Source: Alphaproteobacteria bacterium (GTDB lineage: Bacteria; Pseudomonadota; Alphaproteobacteria; UBA6615). From it: a DNA stretch of 13,160 nt. The notes under the pieces are model-generated. The model was given only the letters and a program-made list of their open reading frames with translations, was not told the DNA's origin and did no database searches. The stretch covers positions 1 to 13,160 of the forward strand of contig JAEPNS010000060.1 of NCBI GenBank assembly GCA_017643325.1, given 5' to 3'. Position 1 is the stretch's first letter. Each line of letters begins with the position of its first letter. Below are positions 1,276 to 13,160 of this stretch, in pieces. The translations under genes and the position numbers were made by a program.

Positions 1276-2634
1276 GGTCACGACCGGCGGCGCGTTGCTC
1301 GGCCGGTTCAGGTCCATCGCCGCACCGGGCGACAGCTCGGTCCCCATGTCGGCCCCCGGGTCGCTGCCCGACATCGCGGTGGTCCCGGTCGAGAGGATCT
1401 GCTGGCTCGCTTCGGGGTTGCCGCCCTGGTCGCCCGCGATCCCGAGACGGCGCAGCGTGCGCTGCCAGCTCGATTCCCGCCGGCTGTGGGAAGAACCGGA
1501 TACGCCCGGCTGCAGGTCCTGGCCGGTCTCGCTGCGCGGCTTCTGCCCGGCGTCGCCCTGGGTCTGGCCCGGGCTGTCGGACGGGTCGAGTTGCGTCCCC
1601 GACGGGGCGGCCGGGAAGGGCTGGCGGGTCGCCGGCTGGTTCATGATGTTGCGGCCGTCGTTCGGGAAGATCGGCGGCAGGCTCTGGAAGTTCGGCAGCT
1701 GGAACTGTTCGGCCGTGACCGGCGGCACCGGCTGCGGCGTGCTCGGCACGTTGGCGATGTCGCTGCCGAGGATCAGCGGCAGCTGGTCCCTGTTGCCGCC
1801 GACGACCACCACCTTGGAGTTCGGCGACTGCGAGAGCTGCACCGTCGCCTCGATGCCGCGCCAGGTGAGCAGCGTGTCGTTCAGCGCCTCGCTGACGATC
1901 GCGTAGAAGTTCCGCAGGCCGATCGCCTGCACGCGCAGGCGCTCGGCCTCGCGCTGCTCGGCGGCGATCAGGAACTCGTACCCGGCCGCGCGCTGCTCCT
2001 GCGCGAGCTTGACGTCGATGGCCGTCGCGACCTGGACCGGCAGGCGGATCTCGGTGATCACAAGGTCGTCGATGGCGATGTCCGCCGACAGGCCGTGCTG
2101 GCGCATCCGCCGCAGGATGTTCTCCTGCAGTTCGGGGTGGTCGACCGAGTAGAGCTCGTTCGAGTTGATGTGGGTGATCTCGTCACGAATGATCGAGCGG
2201 ACCAGGGGCTCGACGATGCGGGTCGGGTAGTCGAGCCCGAGGCGCGTCAGTACGTCCGGCGTGTTCTCGGAGACCGGGCGGAAGAGGGCGGCGCCCTCGA
2301 CCGTCACCCGCATGCCCTCGGCCGACAGGGCGACGACCTCGTAGGGCAGGCGCTGGGTGCGGACCTCGAACAGGAAGATCCTGTCCCAGGGCAGCTTCGC
2401 GGTCAGGCCCTCGCCGATGGTGTCGTCGAGCACCGTGCCCCCGTCGAGCAGGCTGAAGTACACGCCGACATGGCCCGGCGGGACGGTCACGAAGACGAAG
2501 CGCCACAGCACCAGCAGCAGGAAGCCGACAAGGATCGCGATGCCGACCGCCCAGGCAACGATCTTCTCGGTCCTGCCGAACAGCGGTTGCTGCCCGTTGC
2601 GGCGCGCGGCCGTATCTGCCTGTTGCGTCGTCAT
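1267..2634 (-). CDS. SPFH/band-7 (prohibitin/HflC-like) membrane protein with a ~180-aa low-complexity Pro/Gln/Gly/Ser-rich C-terminal tail
   Basis: N-terminal TM helix (IVAWAVGIAILVGFLLLVLW) followed by a band-7-like core (VPPGHVGVYFSLL...EIRLPVQVATAIDVKLAQEQRAAGYEFLIAAEQREAE). The C-terminal third is compositionally biased and disordered-looking. The start ATG (2634-2632) overlaps the upstream ABC gene stop as ATGA. Confidence 0.75.
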   Translation of the reverse strand: MTTQQADTAARRNGQQPLFGRTEKIVAWAVGIAILVGFLLLVLWRFVFVTVPPGHVGVYFSLLDGGTVLDDTIGEGLTAKLPWDRIFLFEVRTQRLPYEVVALSAEGMRVTVEGAALFRPVSENTPDVLTRLGLDYPTRIVEPLVRSIIRDEITHINSNELYSVDHPELQENILRRMRQHGLSADIAIDDLVITEIRLPVQVATAIDVKLAQEQRAAGYEFLIAAEQREAERLRVQAIGLRNFYAIVSEALNDTLLTWRGIEATVQLSQSPNSKVVVVGGNRDQLPLILGSDIANVPSTPQPVPPVTAEQFQLPNFQSLPPIFPNDGRNIMNQPATRQPFPAAPSGTQLDPSDSPGQTQGDAGQKPRSETGQDLQPGVSGSSHSRRESSWQRTLRRLGIAGDQGGNPEASQQILSTGTTAMSGSDPGADMGTELSPGAAMDLNRPSNAPPVVTRP

Positions 2635-4274
2635 CGGGTCTCCTCCCCGTCGGCGGTGCGTTCACGCGCCTGTCCGTCGACCAGCACCAGCGTGCGGTCG
2701 GCGACATGGAAATACTGATCCTCGTGGCTGACGATCACAAGGGTTCGGCCCTCGCGTTTCCACTTCGGAAGCAGCTCGTTGTAGAAGCGTTGGCGGAATT
2801 CAGGGTCCTGGTCGGCGGCCAGCTCGTCGAGCACGAGGATCGGCCGGTTTTCCAGCAGCGCAACCGCCAGCGCAAGACGCTTGCGCTGGCCGGTCGACAG
2901 GTTCGTATTCGTGAATACGCCCTCGCGGTACTGGGTCTTGTGCGCGATGCCGAGCTCGCCGAGCAGCGCGTTGACGTCGGCCTCGGGCACATGCTCGAGG
3001 CCGTAGAGGCGGTCGAACAGGTGGAAATCGCTGAACACACCCGAGAACAGCGCGCGGTAGTCGGCGACGTTGCTCTCGTCGACCGGCACGCGGTCGCGGT
3101 AGATCATGCCGGATTCCGGCTCGTACAGCCGGGTCAGCGCCTTGACCAGCGTCGACTTGCCGCTGCCGTTGCCGCCGACGAGAAACAGCATCTCGCCGCG
3201 CTGGATATGCAGGCTCGTCGGGCCCATCGTGAAGCTGCGCGCGCCGTCCGGGTCGTAGTAGCTGTAGCGCAGGTCCTCGATGTCGATCCGCTCGAACGTC
3301 TCGCCATCCTCGGGCGCGGCTTCCGGGCGCAGCGCGTCGCGCAGGAACCTCTCGACCGTGTCCAGTTCGTCGATCGCGAAATTCGCCCGGGTGATGACGG
3401 GCACGGCTTTCAGGATCACCTCGACGACCGACAGCATGAACACGGCCACGTAGACCGACTGCACGATCACCGCCTGGTCGCCCACGAAGGGCGGCAGCAC
3501 GAACGCGATCATCGCCAGCGTCGTGTAGAAGAACAGGTAGGAGACGCTGATCCCGCGATTGATCTGGATGGCGGCCTCGACCTGGGCGTTGCGAAGCATC
3601 CCGGACTCCGGGGCGAGGTGGCTGTGCTCCAGTGAATCGCCGCGCGGATGGTTGAGCTTCACTTCCTTGAAGCCGTCGATCAGGTGCCGGAACAGCGCGT
3701 AGAAGATGCCCTGCCGCTCGCTCGACGCGGTCAGGGATTCGTGCACCTGCCGCTGCGTCAGGCGGTAGAAGAAGGCGGTCAGCACGATCAGGGTCGCGAT
3801 CACCGCGAACACCAGCGGCGAGACGAGAAGGGTGTAGAAGCCCGCCAGCACCAGCGCGCCGAAGGCCGACACGCCGTGGATCGCCATGATGGCGGCCTCA
3901 GTCAGCATCTGCGAGTTGCGGGTCAGCGTGTCGTAGACCCGGTTCGGTCCGAAGCTTTCGAACCGGCCGTAGTCCGACCGCCGGACGAGGTCGGCATAAT
4001 CCCGGCGGATGCGGTCGAGCAGGTCCTCGACGATGGCCGCCGACAGGCGCTGGCCGACGGCGTTGCCGCCGATGACGCCGAACGCCACGAGTGCGAACAA
4101 AAGGAGGCCGAACAGGTCGGGTGTTGCCGTGCCGTCGGACCCGGTCTCGGGGTCCAGCACGAAGCTGATCACGACCAGCACGCCCAGCAGGCCGAAGGTG
4201 CTGGCCATCAAAGACAGGATCAGCTTGAGGCGGCGTTCCCCCGCCGCTTCCCAGACCAGCCGAATGAACTTCAC
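2631..4274 (-). CDS. Fused permease/ATPase ABC exporter of the YojI/SyrD/PvdE 'cyclic peptide transporter' type, 547 aa
   Basis: N-terminal half carries about 6 hydrophobic TM segments. C-terminal half carries Walker A GGNGSGKST, ABC signature LSTGQRKRLALAVAL and Walker B/D-loop ILVLDELAADQDPEF, which is typical of that family. The start is GTG at 4274-4272 (plus-strand cac), preceded by GAGGA 6 nt upstream on the minus strand. Confidence 0.85.
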   Translation of the reverse strand: MKFIRLVWEAAGERRLKLILSLMASTFGLLGVLVVISFVLDPETGSDGTATPDLFGLLLFALVAFGVIGGNAVGQRLSAAIVEDLLDRIRRDYADLVRRSDYGRFESFGPNRVYDTLTRNSQMLTEAAIMAIHGVSAFGALVLAGFYTLLVSPLVFAVIATLIVLTAFFYRLTQRQVHESLTASSERQGIFYALFRHLIDGFKEVKLNHPRGDSLEHSHLAPESGMLRNAQVEAAIQINRGISVSYLFFYTTLAMIAFVLPPFVGDQAVIVQSVYVAVFMLSVVEVILKAVPVITRANFAIDELDTVERFLRDALRPEAAPEDGETFERIDIEDLRYSYYDPDGARSFTMGPTSLHIQRGEMLFLVGGNGSGKSTLVKALTRLYEPESGMIYRDRVPVDESNVADYRALFSGVFSDFHLFDRLYGLEHVPEADVNALLGELGIAHKTQYREGVFTNTNLSTGQRKRLALAVALLENRPILVLDELAADQDPEFRQRFYNELLPKWKREGRTLVIVSHEDQYFHVADRTLVLVDGQARERTADGEETR

Positions 4275-4366: not shown

Positions 4367-5968
4367 CTAGAATTTGCGGCGGAGTTCCATGCGCACGCCG
4401 GCCAGATCCTCGTCGTTCTCGCGGATGCCGTACATGGCGTCGGTGCGCAGCAGCCACCGGTCGCGGCCGAAGAGGTTCATCTGGTAGCGCAGGCCGAGCG
4501 CATACTGGTCGCCGCGCGCGGCGGACGAGCGCGACATCGGCTGGACGGTGGCGAGTTCGGCAACGATCTGCCGTGACAGGTCGAACAGGTAGCTCACGCC
4601 GATCGCCCCGCCCCACGCATCGCGCGCGGTATCGTCGAGCTTGGGAAACCCCGTCAGTGCGTCGGTCTCGAAGTTGATGCCGGTGTTCTTGAGCAGCCCG
4701 TCGCCACCGCGCGCCAGCGGCTGCGGACGGTCGAGGCCGATGAAGGCGTTGAAGTAGGGAACCAGCGTCGTCGGCAGCGACGTGACGAGCGAGTTCTCCA
4801 CCAGCAGGGCCACGCCGTCGGCGGTCTGCGTCTGGTCGCCGCCGGGATCCTGTCCGACGGCCCACACGGCGCGCACCGAGTTGGACAGCCAGCCGCCGTA
4901 GCGCTTGGTCCAGGCGCCAACGAAGTTATGGTAGCTGAAGTCGCCCTGGGGCCGGTCGCGGGTATCGTCGGTATAGCCCCAGCCCGCCTCCAGGTGGCCC
5001 TCCCGCATGTCGGCGAAGGTCACGACACCGACCACGTTGCCTGCATGGTCGGCGAGCGCGCCGTCGTCGTCCACGAGCGCCGCGCTCGAGACCTTGTCGA
5101 CACCGCCGAAGAAGGTGATGTCGTAGTTGGAGATATCCAGCCGGCGCGAGTTGCGTGCGGTGAGCGCAAACGCGCCGCCGACGAACGCGTCGTCGACCCA
5201 GATGCCGTTCTGGAAGAACATCGGAACAAGCCCGAAGGTGAACGGCAGGTCCCAGCTCGTGTATTCGTCCGACAGGCCGGTGTAGATGGCGCCGAGGTCG
5301 CCTTCGAAGAAGAAGTTCTCGACATTGGCGTCGAGGATCAGGTCGCCCTGGTCGCGGTCGTTGCCGGCGAACTCGTAGCGCGTGAACTGCCCGCCCTGGT
5401 CGACCGGCCGGAAGAAGGCGTGCAGCCGCTCCGTCGCCGTCAGTTTCAGGTCCACATCGAGGTTGAGCCGCGTGGCGACGAGCCCGGTTTCGGTGTCGCC
5501 GTTGTCGTTGAAGGCGACGGCGGTGCGCCAGTCGCCATAGACCAGAAGCTGCGGCCGGACGAGATTCTTCGCCCCGACCAGGTCATGGCCGGCGCCGATC
5601 GGGCCCTCGCGGTATTGCGGGTATCCGAACTCGAGCACCGGGCGCGGCGTGGTCACCGCGCGCTTGCCGCCGTAGATCTCGAGTTGTGCCTCGACGTCGT
5701 ATGGCTCGTCCGGGTAGGTCGGGTCCGGCCGGTAGTCTTCGGCATCGTGCGAGGAGCGCCGGACGGCGGGGTCCATCTCCGGCGGTGCCTGGTGGCCCTC
5801 ATGCTCCGGGCTGCCGGTGCGCTCCTCCTGGAGTTCCGGCGGCGGCGCGCCGCGGCGCGGGGTCTGCGCGGTCTCGATGACAGTCTGGGCGACGGCGCTG
5901 CCGGCGACAAGAAGCGCGGCGGCCAGGGCTGCGGCCGGGGCCGATCGTTTCATGGTGTCCAACATCAC
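4367..5968 (-). CDS. Putative outer-membrane beta-barrel (porin-like) protein, 533 aa. Has a Sec signal peptide and a disordered acidic/Pro/His-rich N-terminal extension.
   Basis: Signal peptide MKRSAPAAALAAALLVAGSAVAQ. The body has alternating hydrophobic/polar residues with abundant Gly/Asp/Asn/Tyr. It ends in ...RMELRRKF with a terminal Phe, typical of OM beta-barrels. The start overlaps the stop of the upstream cytochrome gene (ATGA at 5965-5968). Confidence 0.6.
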   Translation of the reverse strand: MMLDTMKRSAPAAALAAALLVAGSAVAQTVIETAQTPRRGAPPPELQEERTGSPEHEGHQAPPEMDPAVRRSSHDAEDYRPDPTYPDEPYDVEAQLEIYGGKRAVTTPRPVLEFGYPQYREGPIGAGHDLVGAKNLVRPQLLVYGDWRTAVAFNDNGDTETGLVATRLNLDVDLKLTATERLHAFFRPVDQGGQFTRYEFAGNDRDQGDLILDANVENFFFEGDLGAIYTGLSDEYTSWDLPFTFGLVPMFFQNGIWVDDAFVGGAFALTARNSRRLDISNYDITFFGGVDKVSSAALVDDDGALADHAGNVVGVVTFADMREGHLEAGWGYTDDTRDRPQGDFSYHNFVGAWTKRYGGWLSNSVRAVWAVGQDPGGDQTQTADGVALLVENSLVTSLPTTLVPYFNAFIGLDRPQPLARGGDGLLKNTGINFETDALTGFPKLDDTARDAWGGAIGVSYLFDLSRQIVAELATVQPMSRSSAARGDQYALGLRYQMNLFGRDRWLLRTDAMYGIRENDEDLAGVRMELRRKF

Positions 5969-7821
5969 TGAATCTCGAACTCGACCGCGTAGGGATGGAT
6001 GTCGATCATCCAGTCGTTGATCCGTTCCTCCATCTCGCGCGTCGCGCCGACGAAGCGCATGAAGTAGATGGGCTCGGCGCGCGAGCGCATGCGCACCTGC
6101 AGCTTGTAGGTACCGGGCTTGGTCAGCAGTTCGCCGGGCACCTCGTACTCCGCGTCACGCCAGCCGAGCGGCGGGATCGAGCGGCCCTCCATGCGCACGA
6201 AGGGCGGATGGTTCAGCACCGTCGTCGGCAGGTTGGCCGGGCGCAGGAATGGCAGCTGGTCGATGTCGAACTGCACCGGCAGGTACATTTCCCGGTCCGT
6301 GCCCTTGACGTTGGTGGTCAGGAACTTGGTCTGCAGGTTGAAGAGCTGGTCGTCATGCTCGATCGTGCCCGCCGCGACGTCGAGCGAATGCAGGTCCGCC
6401 ATGTCGCCGAGGGAGTCGACGTAGCCCGATTCCCAGATGTTCTTGCCGTCAGGGTCGAGCAGCGCGACGTTCAGCCAGATCTCGGGCTGCGCGCCCAGCG
6501 AACCCGAGGGCAGGTTGTGGCCCTTGTCGGTGTTCGTGACCCGGTAGCGGAAACTGAAATCCCGGCCGAGGCGCGGCGCGCCGTCGTCGAAGAAGGGCCC
6601 GTCGATCCGGCTGCCGTTCTCCATCACGGCGAGGCGGTCGCGGCGCTTGTCCTCCAGCAGCTTCTCGTTCTGCTGGATCACGAAGCGGGCGAACATGCGG
6701 TCATCGCGCTTGCGCCAGACGTCCGGGAAGTCCGGCGTCGCGATCTCGCCGTCACGCAGCCGGTTCTCCCACTCGGCCAGGCCCCACCCGGCGCGGTAGT
6801 CGAAGGTGAGCCATTCCTTGATCGACCAGCGCAGGCCGCGCGGATTGAACGGGAACAGGCCCGGATGCGAGATCGGGTAGCCGGGACCGTAGAAGGCGTG
6901 GTTCGAATGGCGCGCGTTCGGGTCGCCGATCACGCGGCCGTTGACGATCGCGACCGGCCACTCCGCATAGCCCTTCGCCTCGCCCGGCACCTTGCCCATG
7001 TGGCATTCCTGGCACGTGACGCCGGCCTCCGCGGCGGGGCTGTCGCGATACTGCTCCCACACGACCTCGAGCTTGATGCCGAGGTTGACGGCCACCTGGT
7101 GGCAGGACACGCAGAACTGGGATTCGCCGATCTGCTCGAACTCGATGGCGCCGAGGTGAATCTTCGCGCCGTCGGGGTCTTCCTGGGTTGCGACCTTGTA
7201 CTCGTCCGGATTGCTGAGCACGTTCTCGAGATTGTCGGCGCGCCCGATGCCGTAGACCGGCTGCTCGATCGGGCCGGGCTCGATGTGGCGCTCGCCGTTC
7301 ACCTTGCCGAATTCCGCGCCGACGCGGTGGCAGGTGACGCAGGTGATGCCCTCGCGCGCGACGATCGAGCGCTCCCACAGCGGCTTTTCGCGGGCCTCGC
7401 CGCGCTGGGTGCCGACCTGCTGGTGGCAGCGCACGCAGAACGCGCCGATCGTGCCGGACGACAGGTCGTTGATGGCCTGCTCGAACTTGTGGAACATCGG
7501 CGAGATCGACGCGTAGGCGTGGTTCGATGACGCCCACTCCGTGAAGATCTTCTGGTGGCACCGCCCGCAGGTCACGGCCGACGGAAACTCGGTCTCCTCA
7601 AACAGGGCCCGGTGCGGGTCCTTGCCCTCGGTCAGTGTCGACGCGGTCTGGTAGGCCGCCGGCACGTCGCTGCCGTCCGGCGCCGGCGCGAACCAGATCT
7701 GCGACGGGGGCAGCTCGTCCACCGTCATCGCGGTGTCGGAGATGGCCGGCGTCGCGCCGGAGAAAAGAAGGGCGGCGCCGAAGAGGAGCCAGGGGGAATT
7801 GAATTGGCGAAGCACGGGCAC
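5965..7821 (-). CDS. Pentaheme c-type cytochrome, 618 aa; periplasmic, with a heme-free C-terminal ~350 aa
   Basis: Sec-type signal (LLFGAALLFSGA). Five CXXCH motifs (CGRCH, CVRCH, CVTCH, CVSCH, CQECH) all lie in the first ~270 aa. The start is GTG at 7821-7819 (plus-strand cac), 3 nt after the stop of the upstream cytochrome gene, consistent with termination-reinitiation. Confidence 0.85.
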   Translation of the reverse strand: MPVLRQFNSPWLLFGAALLFSGATPAISDTAMTVDELPPSQIWFAPAPDGSDVPAAYQTASTLTEGKDPHRALFEETEFPSAVTCGRCHQKIFTEWASSNHAYASISPMFHKFEQAINDLSSGTIGAFCVRCHQQVGTQRGEAREKPLWERSIVAREGITCVTCHRVGAEFGKVNGERHIEPGPIEQPVYGIGRADNLENVLSNPDEYKVATQEDPDGAKIHLGAIEFEQIGESQFCVSCHQVAVNLGIKLEVVWEQYRDSPAAEAGVTCQECHMGKVPGEAKGYAEWPVAIVNGRVIGDPNARHSNHAFYGPGYPISHPGLFPFNPRGLRWSIKEWLTFDYRAGWGLAEWENRLRDGEIATPDFPDVWRKRDDRMFARFVIQQNEKLLEDKRRDRLAVMENGSRIDGPFFDDGAPRLGRDFSFRYRVTNTDKGHNLPSGSLGAQPEIWLNVALLDPDGKNIWESGYVDSLGDMADLHSLDVAAGTIEHDDQLFNLQTKFLTTNVKGTDREMYLPVQFDIDQLPFLRPANLPTTVLNHPPFVRMEGRSIPPLGWRDAEYEVPGELLTKPGTYKLQVRMRSRAEPIYFMRFVGATREMEERINDWMIDIHPYAVEFEIQ

Positions 7822-7824
7822 GTC

Positions 7825-9126
7825 CTAGTTCAGGTAATCCCGGAGTTTGGCGAGCGCGCTGCGGAAGCCGCTCGATGAGTAGCGGGTCGGGGACTCGGTG
7901 GCCTCGTAGAGGCTTTCGAGTTGCTGCGGCGCGGACCGTCCGAGGGAATCGAGCAGCGCCGCGGCGGCCATGGTGGCCTGTTCGGCGGCGCCGAAGTCGA
8001 CATAGTCCGAGGAATGATCGCGCGATACGAGGGTCGCGAGGGTTGCCTTGAGGTCGGCTTCGCGCAGCGGGTTCTCGACGAGGTTCCGGGTCATGCCGTC
8101 GACCGTGCCCGCGAGCGTGTCAGCCGCGCGCGCCACGGCCGACGCACCCTGGCGGGTGGCGCGGTGCAGGGCGCGGGTCTGTGACTTGAGCGTGTCCGCC
8201 AGCTTGGAATCGCGTCCCTCGGCGATCGCGCGGAGCATCACGAGGTTCGCGTCGTAGAGCTGCGGTTCGCCGGGACCGAGGCCGACACCGGGCTGCGGCG
8301 ACCATTTCGCGTTCGTGTAGGAGTGATGGCAGCTGCCGCACTCGAAGAAGGTGAACTCGGGGAACAGGTGGTTGCGTCCGCGCATGGACTTCGCGAGCGC
8401 GCGCAGCTGGTTGCCGGCGGCGACGGCCTGGCCGATGGCCCACAGGTTTGCCCCGTCCGTCACCGGCTTGCGCTGGCGGTAGTCGTCGTCGATGCGCACA
8501 TGGGCCGGCTGGTTTATGGAGAAGGTGTCGAGCTCGAAGGACAGGCGCGGATGGCCCGCGGCCATCAGGCGGTGCGACACGATCCGGTCCGGGTTGGCCT
8601 GGTGGCATCCGAGGCAGAGTTCCGCCCGCTTCACCGGGTCGTCGGTCGGGTACATGCCCAGCGAGACCAGTGTCGGCCGGTCGCTCAGGCCGCTGACGTG
8701 GGTGCCGAGCCAGTTCTCCGCCCCGCCGTGACAGCTCTCGCAGCCGACACCGCTGGTGATGTCGAAATTGTTGCCGCGCCGGTCTTCGGACACATTGTCC
8801 GCGTGGCACTGCAGGCAGGTCCCGGATTCATGGGCGGCGCCGATCCCCAGCCGCGCGGCGATGCGCTTTCCCCGGTCCGACTGGAGCGCCTTGTAGGCAC
8901 CGGAATGCGCGTCGTGCGTGCTCCAGACAACAAACTCGTTCTGCAACACGACCGAGTTCTGCCAAGGCTGCACCGCGCCGTGACAGGTCGAGGCGGCACA
9001 GGTCTGCACGCCGAGATGGATCGCGCCGTTGTCCTGCGCGAGCGCCTGGTTTGACGTGAACGAAAGTCCGAAAATCAGCGCCGCAACGAACAGGTCGCGA
9101 ACGGCGCGTGCCCCTTGAAAATTCAT
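7825..9126 (-). CDS. Multiheme c-type cytochrome, 433 aa: 4 canonical CXXCH plus one CX4CH, with an Ala-rich helical C-terminal half
   Basis: Signal peptide ending ...SNQALAQ. Motifs CAASTCH (CX4CH), CLQCH, CESCH, CLGCH, CGSCH. The CAASTCH motif was verified by reverse-complementing 8980-9000. First gene of the minus operon that starts at the 9127-9284 divergent region. Confidence 0.85.
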   Translation of the reverse strand: MNFQGARAVRDLFVAALIFGLSFTSNQALAQDNGAIHLGVQTCAASTCHGAVQPWQNSVVLQNEFVVWSTHDAHSGAYKALQSDRGKRIAARLGIGAAHESGTCLQCHADNVSEDRRGNNFDITSGVGCESCHGGAENWLGTHVSGLSDRPTLVSLGMYPTDDPVKRAELCLGCHQANPDRIVSHRLMAAGHPRLSFELDTFSINQPAHVRIDDDYRQRKPVTDGANLWAIGQAVAAGNQLRALAKSMRGRNHLFPEFTFFECGSCHHSYTNAKWSPQPGVGLGPGEPQLYDANLVMLRAIAEGRDSKLADTLKSQTRALHRATRQGASAVARAADTLAGTVDGMTRNLVENPLREADLKATLATLVSRDHSSDYVDFGAAEQATMAAAALLDSLGRSAPQQLESLYEATESPTRYSSSGFRSALAKLRDYLN

Positions 9127-9210
9127 TTTTGCCCCGACCGCTGCCCTGCGGCCCCTTCGCGTTCGATTTCGGAACGGTAACCCAGTATACTCAAATCAGT
9201 TTGTTGGTGT

Positions 9211-9226
9211 AGTGATTCGTATCACA
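9211..9226. promoter_or_regulatory. Candidate CRP/FNR-family operator (aGTGAttcgtaTCACa) in the divergent promoter region between the cytochrome operon and the flavo-FeS operon
   Basis: 16-mer agtgattcgtatcaca matches TGTGA-N6-TCACA with one mismatch. Its core GTGAT-N4-ATCAC is a perfect palindrome resembling the FNR box TTGAT-N4-ATCAA. It is centred ~66 bp upstream of the 9285 start and ~92 bp upstream of the 9126 start. The surrounding 9127-9284 region is the most AT-rich stretch in the locus. Confidence 0.4.
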
Positions 9227-9284
9227 CCCTTCGGCTTGGGCAGCCGGCAGGGTTATTGTAAGGGAGCGGGCCGCCTCAAGGCCC

Positions 9285-11678
9285 GTGGGTTCTGGGGAGA
9301 GTTTCGGGGGCGTGTCTCAGGTTCAGGTCGCCATCGTGGGTTCGGGTCCGGCAGGATTGAGCGCCGGCGCGCGCGCGGCCGTGCGCGGCCTGTCGCATGT
9401 CGTTCTCGAGCGGACCGAGCAGCCGAGCAACACGATCTTCCGCTTCCAGAAGGGTAAGCATGTCATGGCGCAGCCGGCGCACACGCCGCTGCGCAGCGAG
9501 ATCCCGTTCGAGGACGGACGCCGCGAGGATGTGCTCGCGGCCTGGCTTGCCCGCGCGGAAGAACTCGGGGTCAATTTCCGGTTCAATTCCGAGGTCACCG
9601 GCATCACCGGGAGCCGGGGCGATTTCGTCATTTCGCTCGCCGACGGCGAGGAGGTGCGCGCCGAGACGGTCGTGCTTGCCGTCGGACTGCAGGGCAACCT
9701 GAACAAGCTGCGCGTGCCCGGCGCCGAGCTGCCGCATGTCGGCTACCAGCTCGACGATCCCGACGAATTCGAGCATGAGCGGATCGCCGTGATCGGCGGC
9801 GGCGACGCCTCGATCGAGAACGCGCTCGCGCTGGCGGAGCACAACGAGGTCACGATCATCAACCGCTCGGACGAGTTCGCCCGGGCGAAGTCCGCCAACG
9901 AGAGCGCGATCCTCGCCGCGATCGAGTCGGGACGGATGGACGTGGCCTACAACGCGAACACGATCGCGATCGAGCCGGACACGCTGGTGCTCGAGACGCC
10001 CGAGGGCGAGGCGCGCATTCCCTGCGAGCGGATCATCGCGCGTCTCGGCGCGGCGCCGCCGCGCAAGCTGGTCGAGGCCTGCGGCGTGGAATTCCCGACG
10101 GAGGAACGCAACGCGCTGCCGGAGGTCTCCCCGCAGTACGAATCGAACGTGCCCGGGCTGTACGTCGTCGGTGCGCTCGGCGGGTTCCCGCTGATCAAGC
10201 AGGCCCTCAACCAGGGCTACGAGGTCATCGAGCATATCGTCGGGGAGGATGTGGAACCGGCGGACGCGCCGCTGCTGCGCGAGAAAATCTCCGCGGCGCA
10301 GGGCTGGGACGTCGACGGCTTCCTCGAGGCGGTGCGCACGCGTGTCCCGATCTTCGCCGAGCTCAATGCGCTGGTCCTTCGCGACACGATGCTCGAGTCC
10401 GAGGTGCACAGTTTCACGGACGGCGAGATCGTGTTCCGCCGGAACGACTACACCAACAGCCTGTATGTGGTCATCGAGGGCGCGGTGCGGATCCATCTCG
10501 ACGACGAGATGCCGCCGAAGGCGAGCGTGCAGCTGGGGCAGGGCGCCTTCTTCGGAGAGATGGGCCTGATTTCCGGCCGCCGGCGCAACGCGACCGTGTC
10601 CGCGATCGGCAACGCGCTGCTCCTCGAGGTGCCGCGGCGGCGGATGATCACCTTGCGGGCGAGCGTACCGTCGGTCCGCGAGGCGATGGACCGCGAGGCG
10701 GTGGCACGCTCGATCCAGTCGCACCTCGCGCCGGGTCTCGACCGCGACAGCATCGACGACATCGCGGCCGCGGCCACGATCCACAACTGGTCGAAGGGTC
10801 AGGTTCTGTTCAGCGAGGGCGAGGAGGGCGACAGCCTGCACCTCATCCGCCGCGGCTCGGTGCTCGTGCGCAAGAAGATCGGCGACCACGACGTCGTCCT
10901 GAACTATGTGGCGGCCGGCAACTATGTGGGCGAGATGGCGCTGGTCAGCGGCGAGCCGCGCAACGCGACCGTCGCGGCGGCCGCCGACTGCGAGACCATC
11001 CGCATCGAGCGCGACGACTTCAACCGGCTGATGGACCGCCACCCCGACCTGCGCACCGAGATCGAGCAGGTGCGCGAGGCGCGCGCCGCGATCACCGCCC
11101 GCATGGCCGAGAGCCCGGACCAGGGCAGCCTGATCGAGTTCCTGGTCGACCAGGGCGGCAAGGAAGCCACCGACATCCTGCTGATCGACGAGTCCCTGTG
11201 CGTCGGCTGCGACAACTGCGAGAAAGCCTGCGCCGGCACCCACGGCGGCATCACGCGGCTCGACCGCGAGGCGGGGCCGACCTACGCCGACATGCACGTG
11301 CCGACATCCTGCCGGCACTGCGAGCATCCGCACTGCATGAGCGACTGCCCGCCCGACGCCATCAAGCGCGCGATGGGCGGCGAGGTCTACATCACCGATG
11401 CCTGCATCGGCTGCGGCAACTGCCAGCGCAATTGCCCCTACGACGTGATCCAGATGGCGAACCCGCAGATGGGCGAGCGCGGCTGGCTCGCGAGCCTGCT
11501 CGGCGGCATGGCCGGCAAGCGCGCCGAGGTGTCCGACGGGCCCAAGCAGGCCGTGAAGTGCGACATGTGCCTCGACATCGACGGCGGCCCGGCCTGCGTG
11601 CGGGCCTGCCCGACCGGCGCGGCAATCCGCGTCCATCCGTCCGAGGTTATCGAGCTCGTGACCGGGAGCGGGCGATGA
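9285..11678 (+). CDS. Multidomain redox protein, 797 aa: FAD/NAD(P)-binding oxidoreductase (two Rossmann motifs, no CXXC), then two tandem cNMP-binding domains, then a NrfC/FdnH/PsrB-like four-cluster [4Fe-4S] ferredoxin module
   Basis: VAIVGSGPAGL (FAD GxGxxG) and VIGGGDASIENA (NAD(P) motif). Two cNMP-binding signatures: FGEMGLISGRRRNATV and VGEMALVSGEPRNATV. Four Cys clusters: CVGCDNCEKAC, CRHCEHPHCMSDCP, CIGCGNCQRNCP and CDMC...ACVRACPTGA. No signal peptide, so it is cytoplasmic. The GTG start at 9285 is uncertain; GTG at 9312 (VSQVQVAIVG...) is an alternative. Confidence 0.8.
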   Translation: MGSGESFGGVSQVQVAIVGSGPAGLSAGARAAVRGLSHVVLERTEQPSNTIFRFQKGKHVMAQPAHTPLRSEIPFEDGRREDVLAAWLARAEELGVNFRFNSEVTGITGSRGDFVISLADGEEVRAETVVLAVGLQGNLNKLRVPGAELPHVGYQLDDPDEFEHERIAVIGGGDASIENALALAEHNEVTIINRSDEFARAKSANESAILAAIESGRMDVAYNANTIAIEPDTLVLETPEGEARIPCERIIARLGAAPPRKLVEACGVEFPTEERNALPEVSPQYESNVPGLYVVGALGGFPLIKQALNQGYEVIEHIVGEDVEPADAPLLREKISAAQGWDVDGFLEAVRTRVPIFAELNALVLRDTMLESEVHSFTDGEIVFRRNDYTNSLYVVIEGAVRIHLDDEMPPKASVQLGQGAFFGEMGLISGRRRNATVSAIGNALLLEVPRRRMITLRASVPSVREAMDREAVARSIQSHLAPGLDRDSIDDIAAAATIHNWSKGQVLFSEGEEGDSLHLIRRGSVLVRKKIGDHDVVLNYVAAGNYVGEMALVSGEPRNATVAAAADCETIRIERDDFNRLMDRHPDLRTEIEQVREARAAITARMAESPDQGSLIEFLVDQGGKEATDILLIDESLCVGCDNCEKACAGTHGGITRLDREAGPTYADMHVPTSCRHCEHPHCMSDCPPDAIKRAMGGEVYITDACIGCGNCQRNCPYDVIQMANPQMGERGWLASLLGGMAGKRAEVSDGPKQAVKCDMCLDIDGGPACVRACPTGAAIRVHPSEVIELVTGSGR

Positions 11679-12511
11679 GCGCGGCACCCCTGCACAGCGG
11701 GTTCCTGACCCACAAGCGGATGATGTTCGCCTGGCTGGCGCTGCTGCTCGTGCTCGCCGTCGCCGCGGCCTGGTACTGGCAGGAGATGCTGCCGCCGTCG
11801 GCGGTGGATCTCGGGTTCAGCTACGGGCTGGGGACGCTGGCACTTGTGATCATGCTCTGGCTGACATGGTTCGGCGTGCGCAAGCGCAGCTACGCGAAAG
11901 GGGCGGGGCGGCTGAAGGCGTGGCTGTCGGCGCATGTCTATCTCGGCCTGTCGCTGGTGTTCCTCGTGCCGCTGCACGGCGGCTTCACCATCGCGCCGGA
12001 CATCCACGGGATCGCCTATGTCCTCGTGCTGGTCACGGTCTTCACCGGCCTGTTCGGGGTCGCGTTCTACGGTTTCTACCCCCGCCGGGTGACCGCGAAC
12101 CGCGAGGGACTGACCTTCGACGCGATGCTCAAGCGGATCGCGGAGATCGACATCGAGCTGCGCGGCCTGTCGACCCAGCTGTCGGAGGCGGCCAACAACA
12201 TCGTGCGCCGCGAGGCGGAATCGGGCCGCATCGGAGGCGGCGTGGGAATCCTGTTCGCCCGGCCGATCAACAAGGCACGGCGCGCACGCCAGGCGCTGCT
12301 GCGGCTCAACCTCGACTCCGACGCGGGCAACCGCGCGGCGGCGCTGCTCGAGAGCAAGGCGGCCGTGGTCGACAGGCTGCAGCGCGATATCCAGATGCGC
12401 TCGCGCCTGCGGGCGTGGCTGCTGCTCCATGTGCCGCTGTCGCTTGCGACCCTCGCGGCGGTGATCGCCCACGCGGCGGGCATGCTCATGTTCGGCCTCG
12501 GATCGGTGTAA
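11675..12511 (+). CDS. Integral membrane protein (~5 TM, 278 aa) with two His-x13-His pairs in TM helices; candidate diheme cytochrome b membrane anchor
   Basis: ATG at 11675 overlaps the upstream stop (ATGA at 11675-11678). The six-frame track's 11198 start lies inside the upstream gene and is rejected. TM3 WLSAHVYLGLSLVFLVPLHGG and TM5 LLLHVPLSLATLAAVIAHAAG each carry two His 14 residues apart, as in bis-heme b ligation of cytochrome b/FdnI-type subunits. A ~130-aa Arg/Ala-rich soluble region lies between TM4 and TM5. Confidence 0.7.
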   Translation: MSAAPLHSGFLTHKRMMFAWLALLLVLAVAAAWYWQEMLPPSAVDLGFSYGLGTLALVIMLWLTWFGVRKRSYAKGAGRLKAWLSAHVYLGLSLVFLVPLHGGFTIAPDIHGIAYVLVLVTVFTGLFGVAFYGFYPRRVTANREGLTFDAMLKRIAEIDIELRGLSTQLSEAANNIVRREAESGRIGGGVGILFARPINKARRARQALLRLNLDSDAGNRAAALLESKAAVVDRLQRDIQMRSRLRAWLLLHVPLSLATLAAVIAHAAGMLMFGLGSV

Positions 12512-12517
12512 CCGGCC

Positions 12518-13160
12518 ATGCGCGTCCTCGTCACACACCGCCTGCGCCGCACCCGCCGGGAAGGCTATGTCGAGCGCTCCGAGACGCTCGAGGGCGAAAC
12601 CATCCGGATCGGGCGCGGCTCGGATGTCGAGCTGCACCTGCCGGACGGGCGCGTCCTCCTGCACCATGCCACTCTCGCGGTCGAGAACGGCGAGCTGATG
12701 CTGCGCGCGGACCCGAGCGCGGAGATCGAGCTCGACGGCATCCCGGTGGATATCGCCCAGCTCACGCCGGGCCGCACCGTCGCCGTCGGCCCGTACGACA
12801 TTACCTGCGGCGAAGCTGTCGAGGGCCACGACGCCTGTATCAGTGTCGAGCTCGCGCGCCCCATGGGCGATGCCGAGACGATCGTGCGCGAGCGCGTCCG
12901 CACGCCCCTGCTGTCGCGTTCACGCAGCGGATGGGCGCTCGGCGGCCTGCTGGGGCTGGTGCTGCTGGTCGTCGGCGTGGGCATCCCGCTGAGCTCGTTC
13001 CTCGGCGAGCGCGAGACGCAGCGCGTCGCGACCGACGCGGGCGAGACCGACATCATGCGGATGGCGGAGAGCATGTGGCTGACCGAGCAGCTCTCGAGCG
13101 TGCATGACAACCTCGAGGCCGGCTGCCAGGCCTGCCATGTCACGCCCTTTGCGACCGTCG
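12518..13160 (+). CDS. Partial CDS (3' end outside the window): FHA-like N-terminal domain, one TM helix, then an extracytoplasmic region containing a CXXCH heme-binding motif
   Basis: It is absent from the six-frame track because there is no stop before the window end, but frame 2 is open from ATG 12518 to 13160 with strong GC3 bias. N-terminus ETIRIGRGSDVELHLPDGRVLLHHATLAVENGELMLRADPSAEIELDGIPV resembles an FHA fold (GR...SR.HA pattern). TM helix WALGGLLGLVLLVVGVGIPLSSFL. CQACH lies near the window end. Confidence 0.6.
   Translation, partial: MRVLVTHRLRRTRREGYVERSETLEGETIRIGRGSDVELHLPDGRVLLHHATLAVENGELMLRADPSAEIELDGIPVDIAQLTPGRTVAVGPYDITCGEAVEGHDACISVELARPMGDAETIVRERVRTPLLSRSRSGWALGGLLGLVLLVVGVGIPLSSFLGERETQRVATDAGETDIMRMAESMWLTEQLSSVHDNLEAGCQACHVTPFATV

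Follow-up and report, generated by a model that had tools for sequence, protein, structure and literature searches.

Introduction

NOX and ferric reductase enzymes pass electrons from NAD(P)H across the membrane over two stacked b haems with bis-His ligation, the paired histidines in NOX being spaced by x13 and x12. Cytochrome b of the bc1 and b6f complexes carries its H-x13-H pairs on the diagonal helices B and D, and the helices between them have conserved glycines spaced by about 14 residues. The FdnI/CybB type (structure 1KQF) places its haem ligands on TM1, TM2 and, as a pair, TM4 of four transmembrane (TM) helices, and its H-x13-H helix runs from out to in.

Among genes of cytochrome-rich modules, PtdF of the ptdABCDEFG cluster has been listed as a cytoplasmic-membrane "ferric reductase-like" protein of "completely unknown" function (Elbon et al., bioRxiv 10.1101/2023.11.21.568154), and the same preprint reports the module also in nitrite oxidisers. 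The MAGs from which ptd was described are marine and alphaproteobacterial, the same kind as the source used here; unlike the present work, that preprint gives PtdF no histidine, haem or topology analysis. On the other hand, a 5-TM protein encoded beside an FHA-nonahaem protein ("NHC") in Ferrigenium straubiae was described as having no redox motif, and a scaffold role was proposed for it (bioRxiv 10.64898/2026.01.22.701106).

The window analyzed here is a stretch of 13,160 nt from an alphaproteobacterial contig (JAEPNS010000060.1), and our target within it is a gene for a small membrane protein. A previous sequence-only reading had taken the product for a putative new di-haem cytochrome b anchor, translationally coupled to a flavo-FeS protein, that could conduct electrons from a cytoplasmic FeS module to the periplasmic side. 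From comparison with its homologues we put at roughly 60% the probability that the target carries two b haems and serves as the membrane-spanning part of a transmembrane electron wire made of three proteins. The features of the locus are collected in Table 1.

Table 1. Features of the locus, with positions in the window.
Feature	Position (nt)	Strand	Basis
533-aa protein, signal-peptide-like N-terminus, no Pfam match, at the PtdB porin position	4367..5968	-	gene order per bioRxiv 10.1101/2023.11.21.568154
Pentahaem cytochrome c, PtdA-like, five CxxCH	5965..7821	-	motif count, Pfam multihaem families
Multihaem cytochrome c, PtdD-like, divergent, 4 CxxCH + 1 Cx4CH	7825..9126	-	Pfam, motif count; co-located in marine relatives only
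Upstream partner, PtdE-like, 797 aa	9285..11678	+	Pfam, NCBIfam, sequence reading
Target gene, PtdF-like, predicted di-haem b protein, 278 aa, 5 TM	11675..12511	+	translation, GC3, homologues, AF2 model
TM1, residues 17-35, in to out, at the periphery of the bundle	11723..11779	+	hydropathy, charge; few covariation couplings to other helices
TM2, residues 48-67, out to in; invariant G53/G67 14 apart, then R69-K70-R71	11816..11875	+	conservation, charge, covariation
TM3, residues 83-101, in to out; H87 cytoplasmic, H101 periplasmic layer; motif SAHxYLG...LH	11921..11977	+	conservation, topology
Invariant H111, then TM4, residues 112-133, out to in; G125, G128, Y132	12005..12073	+	conservation, covariation
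Cytoplasmic helical insert, residues 134-246, ~113 aa, 22 K+R, 13 D+E	12074..12412	+	AF2, covariation
TM5, residues 247-272, in to out; H252 cytoplasmic, H266 periplasmic layer; motif WLxxHVP...AH	12413..12490	+	conservation, covariation
His codons H87, H101, H252, H266	11933-35, 11975-77, 12428-30, 12470-72	+	target ORF
Downstream partner, PtdG-like, truncated at the contig end	12518..13160	+	Pfam, motif search

Results

The target gene and its neighbors

The GC3 of the target ORF (0.925) matches that of real genes elsewhere in the window, and its start Met is common to the homologues in the alignment. Its ATG and the TGA that ends the upstream gene share nucleotides as ATGA (11675-11678), which fits the coupling to the flavo-FeS gene claimed earlier. 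In homology searches a single sequence as query retrieved 383 homologues and a profile more than 4600; at 50% identity the family comprises 3886 representatives.

The upstream protein contains a TrxR/YpdA-like FAD/NAD(P)H domain that lacks CxxC (the FAD and NAD(P)H motifs are both present), two cNMP-binding domains and, at its C-terminus, a ferredoxin domain whose 16 Cys form four groups of the CxxCxxCxxxC(P) type, like those of HydN, DmsB and NrfC. In the partial protein encoded downstream, an FHA/YscD-like cytoplasmic domain is accompanied by a single TM helix (about residues 138-162) and by the first CxxCH, CQACH at residue 203; full-length relatives of this protein have 556-630 aa and 10 CxxCH.

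Matched by gene position and description, the target almost certainly belongs to the same family as PtdF. Its gene lies between those for a cNMP/4Fe-4S protein and a decahaem protein, as ptdF does between ptdE and ptdG, and genes for pentahaem, porin-position and tetrahaem counterparts lie alongside, the porin counterpart being assigned by position only. Copies 77-86% identical to the PtdA-like pentahaem protein were found in L001, L005, L007 and L008. Unlike the ptd cluster, the locus has the FAD domain fused to the cNMP/FeS protein, and a separate ptdC was not seen in the window. The 5-TM protein of F. straubiae is very likely a member of this family too, to judge from a three-gene architecture in which it likewise goes with a [4Fe-4S] protein and an FHA-TM-multihaem cytochrome c; its authors saw a scaffold, whereas two b haems are argued here for the target.

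Synteny was scored in 80 genomes of Alpha-, Beta- and Gammaproteobacteria, Myxococcota, Spirochaetota, Acidobacteriota and Eremiobacterota. The gene for an FHA-TM-decahaem cytochrome c follows the target homologue immediately 3' in about 78 of them (its product is decahaem in 71 of the 77 genomes that could be scored), and the flavo-cNMP-FeS gene precedes it immediately 5' in about 72, with gaps between the linked genes of -4 to about +20 nt. The presence of FeS and TM-anchored decahaem genes on either side of the target in nearly every genome lends support to the electron path from a cytoplasmic FeS module to the periplasm that had been suggested.

Invariant histidines and membrane topology

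Conservation was analyzed over 218 homologues with a median identity to the query of 35%. The two His-x13-His pairs that had been noticed are indeed present on two TM helices of the translation, one on TM3 within SAHVYLGLSLVFLVPLH, which holds H87 and H101, and the other on TM5 within LLHVPLSLATLAAVIAH, which holds H252 and H266. H87, H252 and H266 are each kept in 218/218 homologues and H101 in 217/218. Conservation of at least 98% was found at 31 of the 278 positions, which include five of the seven histidines (Fisher p = 2e-4). Each helix from TM2 to TM5 carries an invariant pair spaced i/i+14 (G53/G67, H87/H101, H111/G125 and H252/H266, respectively), and the invariant glycines lie at the same two depths as the His layers. 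Besides the histidines, G53, G67, G125, G128, Y132, Y89, S85 and R69-K70-R71 are invariant.

The distribution of positive charge is consistent across the family, the mean number of K+R in the 218 sequences being 1.7 in the N-terminus, 0.4 in L1, 4.9 in L2, 0.0 in L3, 20.2 in the insert and 0.0 in the C-terminus, which in the target extends 6 residues beyond TM5. By the positive-inside rule the protein is N-in/C-out. This topology keeps both His pairs inside the membrane and at two depths, with H87 and H252 in the cytoplasmic leaflet and H101 and H266 in the periplasmic one. A natural in-frame fusion, P0286, in which the cytoplasmic flavo-FeS protein forms the N-terminus of a member of the target family, fits an N-in orientation.

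The helices number five by our count, and H111, which the sequence-only reading did not mention, is the fifth invariant histidine among the 218 homologues, placed at the periplasmic start of TM4; it is surplus to two bis-His haems.

Between TM4 and TM5 lies the insert, its location as first described and its length about 113 aa in place of the 130 or so given then; across the family it ranges from 113 to about 190 aa. Within it P136, N142-R143, G187-G188 and D238 are conserved, and the AF2 model, which is confident overall (mean pLDDT 84.7), folds residues 148-168, 171-182, 200-210 and 216-246 into helices with pLDDT up to 95-97. Covariation also gave antiparallel couplings inside the insert (I155-L235, L162-A221 and N142-D238).

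Helix packing from covariation

Mean-field DCA was run on 425 sequences (Meff 280). The top couplings cover all four cyclic neighbor pairs, TM2-3, TM3-4, TM4-5 and TM5-2. TM2 is coupled to TM3 (F66-L84, A56-L97) and to TM5 (T64-S256, M60-T259), and TM4 is coupled to TM3 (V95-L119, L92-L126) and to TM5 (V120-L255, I110-A265). Between TM3 and TM5, on the other hand, just three couplings were found, which are weaker and parallel, with offsets of 165, 164 and 171; the strongest is V98-V263 (offset 165), and P99-V263 has offset 164. An offset of 165 also separates H87 from H252 and H101 from H266, which brings each of these pairs into register.

This coupling pattern demonstrates, at the level of sequence covariation, that TM2, TM3, TM4 and TM5 form a closed four-helix bundle in which the His helices TM3 and TM5 are diagonal and in register. 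The predicted layout is that of a two-haem b bundle, from which we infer haem binding.

Profile and structure comparisons

The best sequence-family signal came from PF01292 (CybB, HyaC, FdnI). The query itself scored 14.7 bits (E = 0.027), under the Pfam gathering cut-off of 30.1, and 30 of 34 family members matched at E<=1, a weak but recurrent signal; among ten relatives, P0096 (33.9 bits) and P0027 (31.1 bits) were the only ones to pass the cut-off. PF01794 (NOX, FRE, STEAP, MsrQ/YedZ; gathering cut-off 28 bits) was not matched by the query at E<=1 and was weakly matched by 13 of the 34 members (best E = 0.0025, about 17 bits), TM2-4 falling on profile positions 1-85. DUF4405 was weakly matched by 5/34. 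Taken with the conservation of the four histidines and the diagonal, in-register helices that carry them, these recurrent matches favor the di-haem b reading.

Searches of the PDB gave neither a sequence match nor a discriminating fold match for the target. As it also fails the PF01292 and PF01794 cut-offs, the target defines, by these comparisons, a family of small, widespread and uncharacterised proteins separate from both. The earlier description of the anchor as new calls for qualification, since PtdF had been named before (bioRxiv 10.1101/2023.11.21.568154); what is argued here is the candidate assignment of two b haems.

Against the E. coli proteins MsrQ, CybB/YodB, FdnI/HyaC and NarI, hhalign returned probabilities below 1% with reference profiles that are thin. 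For MsrQ the values were 0.3-0.5% with a shallow profile, whose sequences show identities of 77% or more throughout and, for nearly all of them, of 84% or more. The low-probability MsrQ alignment is collinear and sets H101 opposite MsrQ H91 and H252 opposite MsrQ H151.

The whole AF2 model retrieved sensor four-helix bundles in Foldseek (TorS, PilJ and McpS, E >= 0.13). Such matches, the lack of a significant match between the query and the curated haem families of Pfam and NCBIfam, and the scaffold proposed for the Ferrigenium protein on finding no redox motif (bioRxiv 10.64898/2026.01.22.701106) would suit a non-haem scaffold or signaling subunit, in which the conserved histidines take part in a polar network or coordinate some other metal, and the long insert transduces signals among the membrane and the FHA and cNMP domains. 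We regard this explanation as very improbable: the Foldseek matches are non-significant and driven by long helices, and four invariant intramembrane histidines spaced i/i+14 on diagonal helices, with glycines at the same depths, are the hallmark of bis-His di-haem bundles and hard to explain otherwise than by haem.

Comparison with known di-haem proteins

The geometry had been likened to that of cytochrome b, FdnI and HyaC. The first of these comparisons stands for cytochrome b of bc1, and the other two are loose, with ligands on TM1, TM2 and TM4 in those proteins. His pairs on helices i and i+2 are the pattern of bc1 cytochrome b and of NOX/ferric reductase domains. With cytochrome b of bc1/b6f the geometry is identical, as can be seen from G53/G67, H111/G125 and the covariation bundle of the target, but there is no detectable sequence similarity, the membrane orientation is opposite, and the target lacks the Qo/Qi sites and the eight-helix architecture.

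As in PF01794 proteins, TM helices three and five of the target bear the His pairs and run in to out, and the loop between TM2 and TM3 is basic and lies towards the dehydrogenase module. The target differs from them in its spacing (x13/x13 versus x13/x12 in NOX), in having five TM helices versus a six-TM core, and in its TM4-5 insert; moreover, the flavin sits on a separate subunit, four FeS clusters would stand between flavin and haem, and the proposed acceptor is a multihaem cytochrome c versus O2, Fe(III) or MsrP. PF01292 proteins share the di-haem bis-His arrangement predicted for the target and a four-cluster FeS partner, as in FdnH-FdnI, whereas the target has five TM helices, of which TM1 and TM2 are free of invariant histidines, and its two H-x13-H helices run in to out. 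NarI of NarGHI, a di-haem b protein with five TM helices like the target, which exchanges electrons with a cytoplasmic four-cluster FeS subunit (NarH), is the closest analogue for docking on the cytoplasmic side; in contrast to the target, it has its ligands on TM2 and TM5 with other spacings, is N-out and oxidises quinol.

The PF01292 signal, weak as it is, bears on whether a quinone takes part, as characterised members of that family reduce or oxidise quinones. A di-haem b anchor with a quinone/quinol site, like FdnI, HyaC, NarI or CbcL, would make the module an NAD(P)H:quinone or quinol:cytochrome c oxidoreductase and not a through-wire; the invariant H111, Y89, Y132 and S85 could line such a site near the outer haem, and a quinone link has been proposed for the neighboring multihaem protein in Ferrigenium (bioRxiv 10.64898/2026.01.22.701106). 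This version appears unlikely, given that the His layout is unlike that of FdnI/HyaC, that no known Q-site motif was identified in the target, and that genes for a cytoplasmic donor and a periplasmic acceptor adjoin it in about 90% of genomes, giving a complete wire without quinone.

Proposed electron path

In the two-haem wire that we favor, H87 and H252 would ligate the cytoplasmic-side haem and H101 and H266 the periplasmic-side haem, about 21 Å apart, and the invariant glycines of TM2 (G53, G67) and TM4 (G125, G128) would leave room for the porphyrins. The upstream protein may dock through its 16-Cys FeS domain to the RKR loop between TM2 and TM3 and to the insert, which we propose as a platform where the FeS partner, the FHA partner or both could bind. 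The decahaem cytochrome c encoded downstream would be anchored beside the target by its single TM helix, with its FHA-like domain in the cytoplasm, and its first haem would take electrons from the outer haem, near the invariant H111. On thermodynamic grounds, outward flow is most likely, from NAD(P)H through FAD, four [4Fe-4S] clusters, two b haems and ten c haems, a direction that would be redox-downhill and aided by the membrane potential. The chain may lead onward, in the source organism, to the adjoining porin and multihaem proteins.

Such a module would amount to a split NOX/ferric reductase that needs no quinone and whose activity is probably gated by cyclic nucleotides. The full version of this proposal, in which electrons pass from a cNMP-gated flavo-FeS protein through 5-TM di-haem b proteins of a new family to an anchored decahaem cytochrome with an FHA-like second regulatory input, is put forward tentatively. 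If true, it would mean signal-controlled export of reducing power to the periplasm or cell surface in at least 600 bacterial species of at least six phyla.

TrxR-like FNR-type flavoenzymes are reversible, and the same architecture could in principle run inwards, with periplasmic or extracellular donors, such as Fe(II) or reduced cytochromes delivered via the porin-cytochrome genes, feeding the decahaem protein, the two b haems, the FeS/FAD protein and finally NAD(P)+. Modules built alike have been described for Ferrigenium, which oxidises Fe(II), and, according to the ptd preprint, for nitrite oxidisers. We hold reverse flow to be quite improbable: inward electrons would oppose the membrane potential, the step from c-type haem potentials to NAD(P)+ would be uphill with no proton-coupling element evident, and most bacteria that carry the family live as ordinary aerobic heterotrophs, Lysobacterales and Rhodospirillales among them.

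Finally, the flavo-FeS gene is not adjacent to the target homologue in L028, L037, L038, L043, L078 and L079, and so the electron donor may differ in these genomes. The betaproteobacterial L038 and L043 have the target homologue together with the FHA-decahaem gene.

Gene and histidine conservation

The gene for the PtdF-like membrane protein is entered in the database record, whose source is a marine alphaproteobacterial MAG, as hypothetical protein JJ899_05345. Its GC3 is 0.925 and its codon-position GC is that of the window's real genes (window GC, 65-70%), its start Met is common to homologues, and its ATG shares an ATGA with the stop codon (TGA) of the 797-aa gene upstream. A single-sequence search retrieved 383 homologues and a profile search more than 4600. 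When 1.84 billion representatives were searched exhaustively by HMM, 3886 family clusters (50% identity) were found at E ≤ 1e-3, of which 1971 reached E ≤ 1e-10.

The sequence-only reading had proposed a putative diheme cytochrome b anchor on the basis of two His pairs spaced 14 residues apart. Both strings quoted there are present in the translation and carry H87/H101 and H252/H266, with 14 residues separating the members of each pair. Across 218 homologues, whose identity to the query has a median of 35%, H87, H111, H252 and H266 are retained throughout and H101 in 217, so the four His that the proposal took as ligands are indeed conserved. Conservation reaches at least 98% at 31 of the 278 positions, which include five of the seven His (Fisher p = 2e-4).

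Coordinates of the genes discussed in the window and in related loci
Feature	Location	Strand	Basis
PtdF-like membrane protein	11675-12511	+	translation, 278 aa
Flavo-cNMP-FeS gene	9285-11678	+	domain matches and sequence motifs
FHA-TM-cytochrome c gene	12518-13160, runs to contig end	+	FHA/YscD-like domain, one TM, first CxxCH
Tetra/pentahaem cytochrome	7825-9126	-	CxxCH motifs
Pentahaem cytochrome	5965-7821	-
Putative porin, 533 aa	4367-5968	-
Full-length downstream homologue, related locus L005	L005:6844-8574
Full-length downstream homologue, related locus L001	L001:10859-12580

Membrane topology

Hydropathy places five TM segments at residues 17-35, 48-67, 83-101, 112-133 and 247-272. Basic residues (K+R) alternate strictly from loop to loop, numbering 2 at the N-terminus, 0 in loop 1, 6 in loop 2 (which includes the invariant R69-K70-R71), 0 in loop 3, 22 in the TM4-TM5 insert and 0 at the C-terminus of the query, with family means in the same order of 1.7, 0.4, 4.9, 0.0, 20.2 and 0.0; the protein is therefore assigned an N-in/C-out topology. 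TM3 and TM5 are both predicted to run from the cytoplasm to the periplasm, with H87 and H252 roughly one turn in from the cytoplasmic face and H101 and H266 near the periplasmic face, whereas H111 would lie at the periplasmic start of TM4. The charge topology puts the four paired His within TM3 and TM5, inside the membrane, where the sequence-only reading had located them. That reading had also described a charged insert between TM4 and TM5, which is present, but at residues 134-246 it measures 113 aa instead of ~130 aa.

The N-in topology fits a 1110-aa metagenomic homologue (P0286), an in-frame fusion that places the flavo-cNMP-FeS protein N-terminal to a family member, although this is a single case that may stem from loss of a stop codon or from misassembly. 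The TM2-3 loop of P0286 is further extended by a long basic insertion. Another homologue, P0291, was considered as a fusion to the downstream gene and rejected as a frameshift artefact with low-complexity read-through.

Architecture of the helix bundle

Each helix from TM2 to TM5 carries one invariant i/i+14 pair (G53/G67, H87/H101, H111/G125 and H252/H266, respectively), which defines two layers in the membrane. Mean-field direct-coupling analysis of 425 non-identical family sequences (Meff 280) gave top couplings between TM2 and TM3 (F66-L84, A56-L97), TM3 and TM4 (V95-L119, L92-L126, V95-V122), TM4 and TM5 (V120-L255, I110-A265) and TM5 and TM2 (T64-S256/L257, M60-T259), with antiparallel packing in each case. 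These couplings describe a predicted closed four-helix bundle of TM2-TM5, to which TM1 is peripheral. Just three weaker couplings link TM3 and TM5, in parallel orientation (V98-V263, P99-V263 and L84-L255; offsets 165, 164 and 171), and at an offset of 165 H87 comes level with H252 and H101 with H266. The His-bearing TM3 and TM5 are predicted to stand diagonally and in register, with invariant Gly at the same depths on the intervening helices.

The bc1 cytochrome b and the NOX/ferric reductase domains each enclose a pair of bis-His haems in such a bundle, ~21 Å apart, and the PtdF-like protein resembles both in its diagonal, in-register His helices and in the Gly of the helices between them. 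An AF2 model (mean pLDDT 84.7, pTM 0.73) contains the same helices and a well-ordered helical cytoplasmic domain; together with couplings internal to the insert (I155-L235, L162-A221, N142-D238), it shows that the TM4-TM5 insert is a folded domain.

Relation to known haem-b families

The query matched no Pfam or NCBIfam family above cut-off. When 34 family members were scanned singly against Pfam at E ≤ 1, PF01292 (prokaryotic cytochrome b561/Ni-hydrogenase b) was matched by 30 (best 3.5e-8), PF01794 (ferric reductase TM domain) by 13 and DUF4405 by five, all three being TM families that bind haem b and belong to a single Pfam clan. Two relatives barely exceeded the PF01292 gathering score, and a few family members bear the UniRef label 'Ferric reductase like transmembrane component'. 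In the PF01794 matches, TM2-TM4 of the family align with the start of the profile, an alignment topologically consistent with TM3 and TM5 matching the His-bearing helices 3 and 5 of NOX/FRE, whereas the arrangement of PF01292, in which TM1, TM2 and TM4 bear the ligands, does not match that of the family. The protein is therefore filed as a distinct family of di-haem b kind, outside PF01292 and PF01794.

A PDB search with the family profile returned nothing beyond coiled-coil noise in the insert, the same search with the insert-deleted alignment (A2) gave no match at E ≤ 10, and Foldseek against the PDB gave none below E = 0.13. Alignment of the family profile by hhalign with E. coli MsrQ, CybB+YodB, FdnI+HyaC and NarI gave probabilities below 1% throughout, the MsrQ profile being shallow because its homologue search yielded close sequences alone (all ≥77% identical, nearly all ≥84%).

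Flanking genes and their linkage

The upstream protein contains a TrxR/YpdA-like FAD/NAD(P)H domain that has GxGxxG motifs and lacks a redox-active CxxC, two cNMP-binding domains whose phosphate-binding cassettes are largely intact (GE...RNATV), and a C-terminal domain whose 16 Cys form four CxxCxxCxxxC(P)-type groups and which matches HydN, DmsB, NrfC and ArrB-type four-cluster proteins. The preprint that named the cluster ptdABCDEFG, with a function described as 'completely unknown' (bioRxiv 10.1101/2023.11.21.568154), gives two clusters, whereas the Cys pattern here resembles that of four-cluster HydN/DmsB. The ptd cluster is highly transcribed in oxygen-deficient-zone Alphaproteobacteria.

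In the downstream protein, a single TM helix links a cytoplasmic FHA/YscD-like domain to a decahaem cytochrome c in the periplasm; full-length relatives have ~556-630 aa, and ten CxxCH motifs were found in 71 of 77 scorable downstream loci. The FHA-like part of 71 relatives retains GR and His, and a conserved Leu replaces the phosphate-binding Ser of SxxH, so this domain may not bind phosphothreonine and may serve in docking instead of reading pThr. Conserved Thr residues occur at the start of the TM4-TM5 insert (T140 in 183 of 218 homologues; T147 in 177, plus 17 with Ser), and, purely as speculation, these could be phospho-acceptor sites for the adjoining FHA-like domain.

With each species represented by a single genome, the PtdF-like gene was found in at least 598 genomes; its cultured carriers include Nisaea, Oceanibacterium hippocampi, Erythrobacter colymbi and Tahibacter soli. 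The best 80 of these loci, from Alpha-, Beta- and Gammaproteobacteria, Myxococcota, Spirochaetota, Acidobacteriota and Eremiobacterota, have the flavo-cNMP-FeS gene immediately upstream in ~72 cases and the FHA-decahaem gene immediately downstream in ~78, with intergenic gaps of -4 to ~+20 nt. In two betaproteobacterial MAG loci (L038:5878-8538 and L043:5608-8565) the homologue and the FHA-decahaem gene adjoin ccm-like genes without an adjacent flavo-FeS gene; two Lysobacterales loci also lack the flavoprotein gene, a further locus has a tetrahaem gene in the upstream position, and one is an orphan. Because of these exceptional loci without the flavoprotein gene, the b-protein/decahaem pair is suggested to be the tightest, core unit, and its electron donor may vary. 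Porin and extra cytochrome genes are limited to a minority of the best 80 loci, chiefly marine relatives; here, the tetra/pentahaem, pentahaem and putative porin genes are transcribed divergently from the operon. At L005, the closest genome relative among the loci listed, the operon stops after the decahaem gene.

A candidate transmembrane electron wire

Conservation, topology, bundle architecture and gene linkage are shown by sequence analysis and support the proposed diheme b anchor, and from them we infer that the protein binds two b haems, one ligated by H87 and H252 and the other by H101 and H266. A different role was put forward for the 5-TM protein of the Fe(II)-oxidising Ferrigenium straubiae, which has the same three-gene architecture, including an FHA-multihaem combination called unprecedented: with 'no matches to redox active' motifs, it was suggested to be a scaffold (bioRxiv 10.64898/2026.01.22.701106). 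We regard a non-haem scaffold or sensor as very improbable. Published accounts either leave ptd function 'completely unknown' or take the membrane protein as redox-inert; the gene was already flagged as PtdF, and we found no later literature on Ptd. The evidence for four His in two layers appears to be new, as does the bundle architecture.

For the diheme protein we propose that the basic loop between TM2 and TM3, together with the helical domain between TM4 and TM5, would dock the upstream protein's terminal FeS cluster, and that the periplasmic haem, with H111 nearby, would pass electrons to the first haem of the adjoining TM-anchored decahaem cytochrome. The whole would form a split NOX-like wire of FAD, four FeS clusters, two b haems and ten c haems, with the cNMP and FHA-like domains as two regulatory modules. 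Outward flow, from NAD(P)H to the periplasm, is the most probable direction, because it would be downhill in potential and assisted by the inside-negative membrane potential. Inward flow would be uphill in redox potential and against the membrane potential, with no coupling device visible, and seems improbable. A quinone site on the b subunit has a modest chance, since H111, Y89 and Y132 have no assigned role and leave room for one.

If the outward wire is correct, this widespread family would supply the missing inner-membrane step of the ptd cluster and connect NAD(P)H in the cytoplasm directly, bypassing quinones, with the multihaem cytochromes of the periplasm, under cyclic-nucleotide and possibly also phospho-dependent control. 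Such a quinone-free, cyclic-nucleotide-controlled link would be an unusual design for bacterial extracellular/periplasmic electron transfer.

Other features of the contig

The 433-aa cytochrome encoded at 7825-9126 has, besides four CxxCH motifs, a CAASTCH (Cx4CH) at residue 43; with this extra motif it may bind five haems, as against the four implied by the label 'tetrahaem PtdD'. The 159-bp divergent intergenic region (9127-9284) contains a CRP/FNR-type half-palindrome, AGTGATTCGTATCACA (9211-9226, + strand), the sole match in the window to TGTGA-N6-TCACA with at most one mismatch (~0.2 expected per window by chance). It was rejected as a CRP-like promoter site, as related loci do not conserve it ahead of the flavoprotein gene.

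The contig begins within a YcaO-type cyclodehydratase gene, of which the C-terminal half alone is present (1-767, + strand), followed on the minus strand by genes for an SPFH/Band-7 protein (1267-2634) and an ABC exporter (2631-4274). The exporter passes the NCBIfam model TIGR01194, 'cyclic peptide export ABC transporter' (295.5 bits against a cut-off of 286.2), and the three genes may be what is left of a RiPP/thiazole-oxazole peptide cluster adjoining the cytochrome genes.
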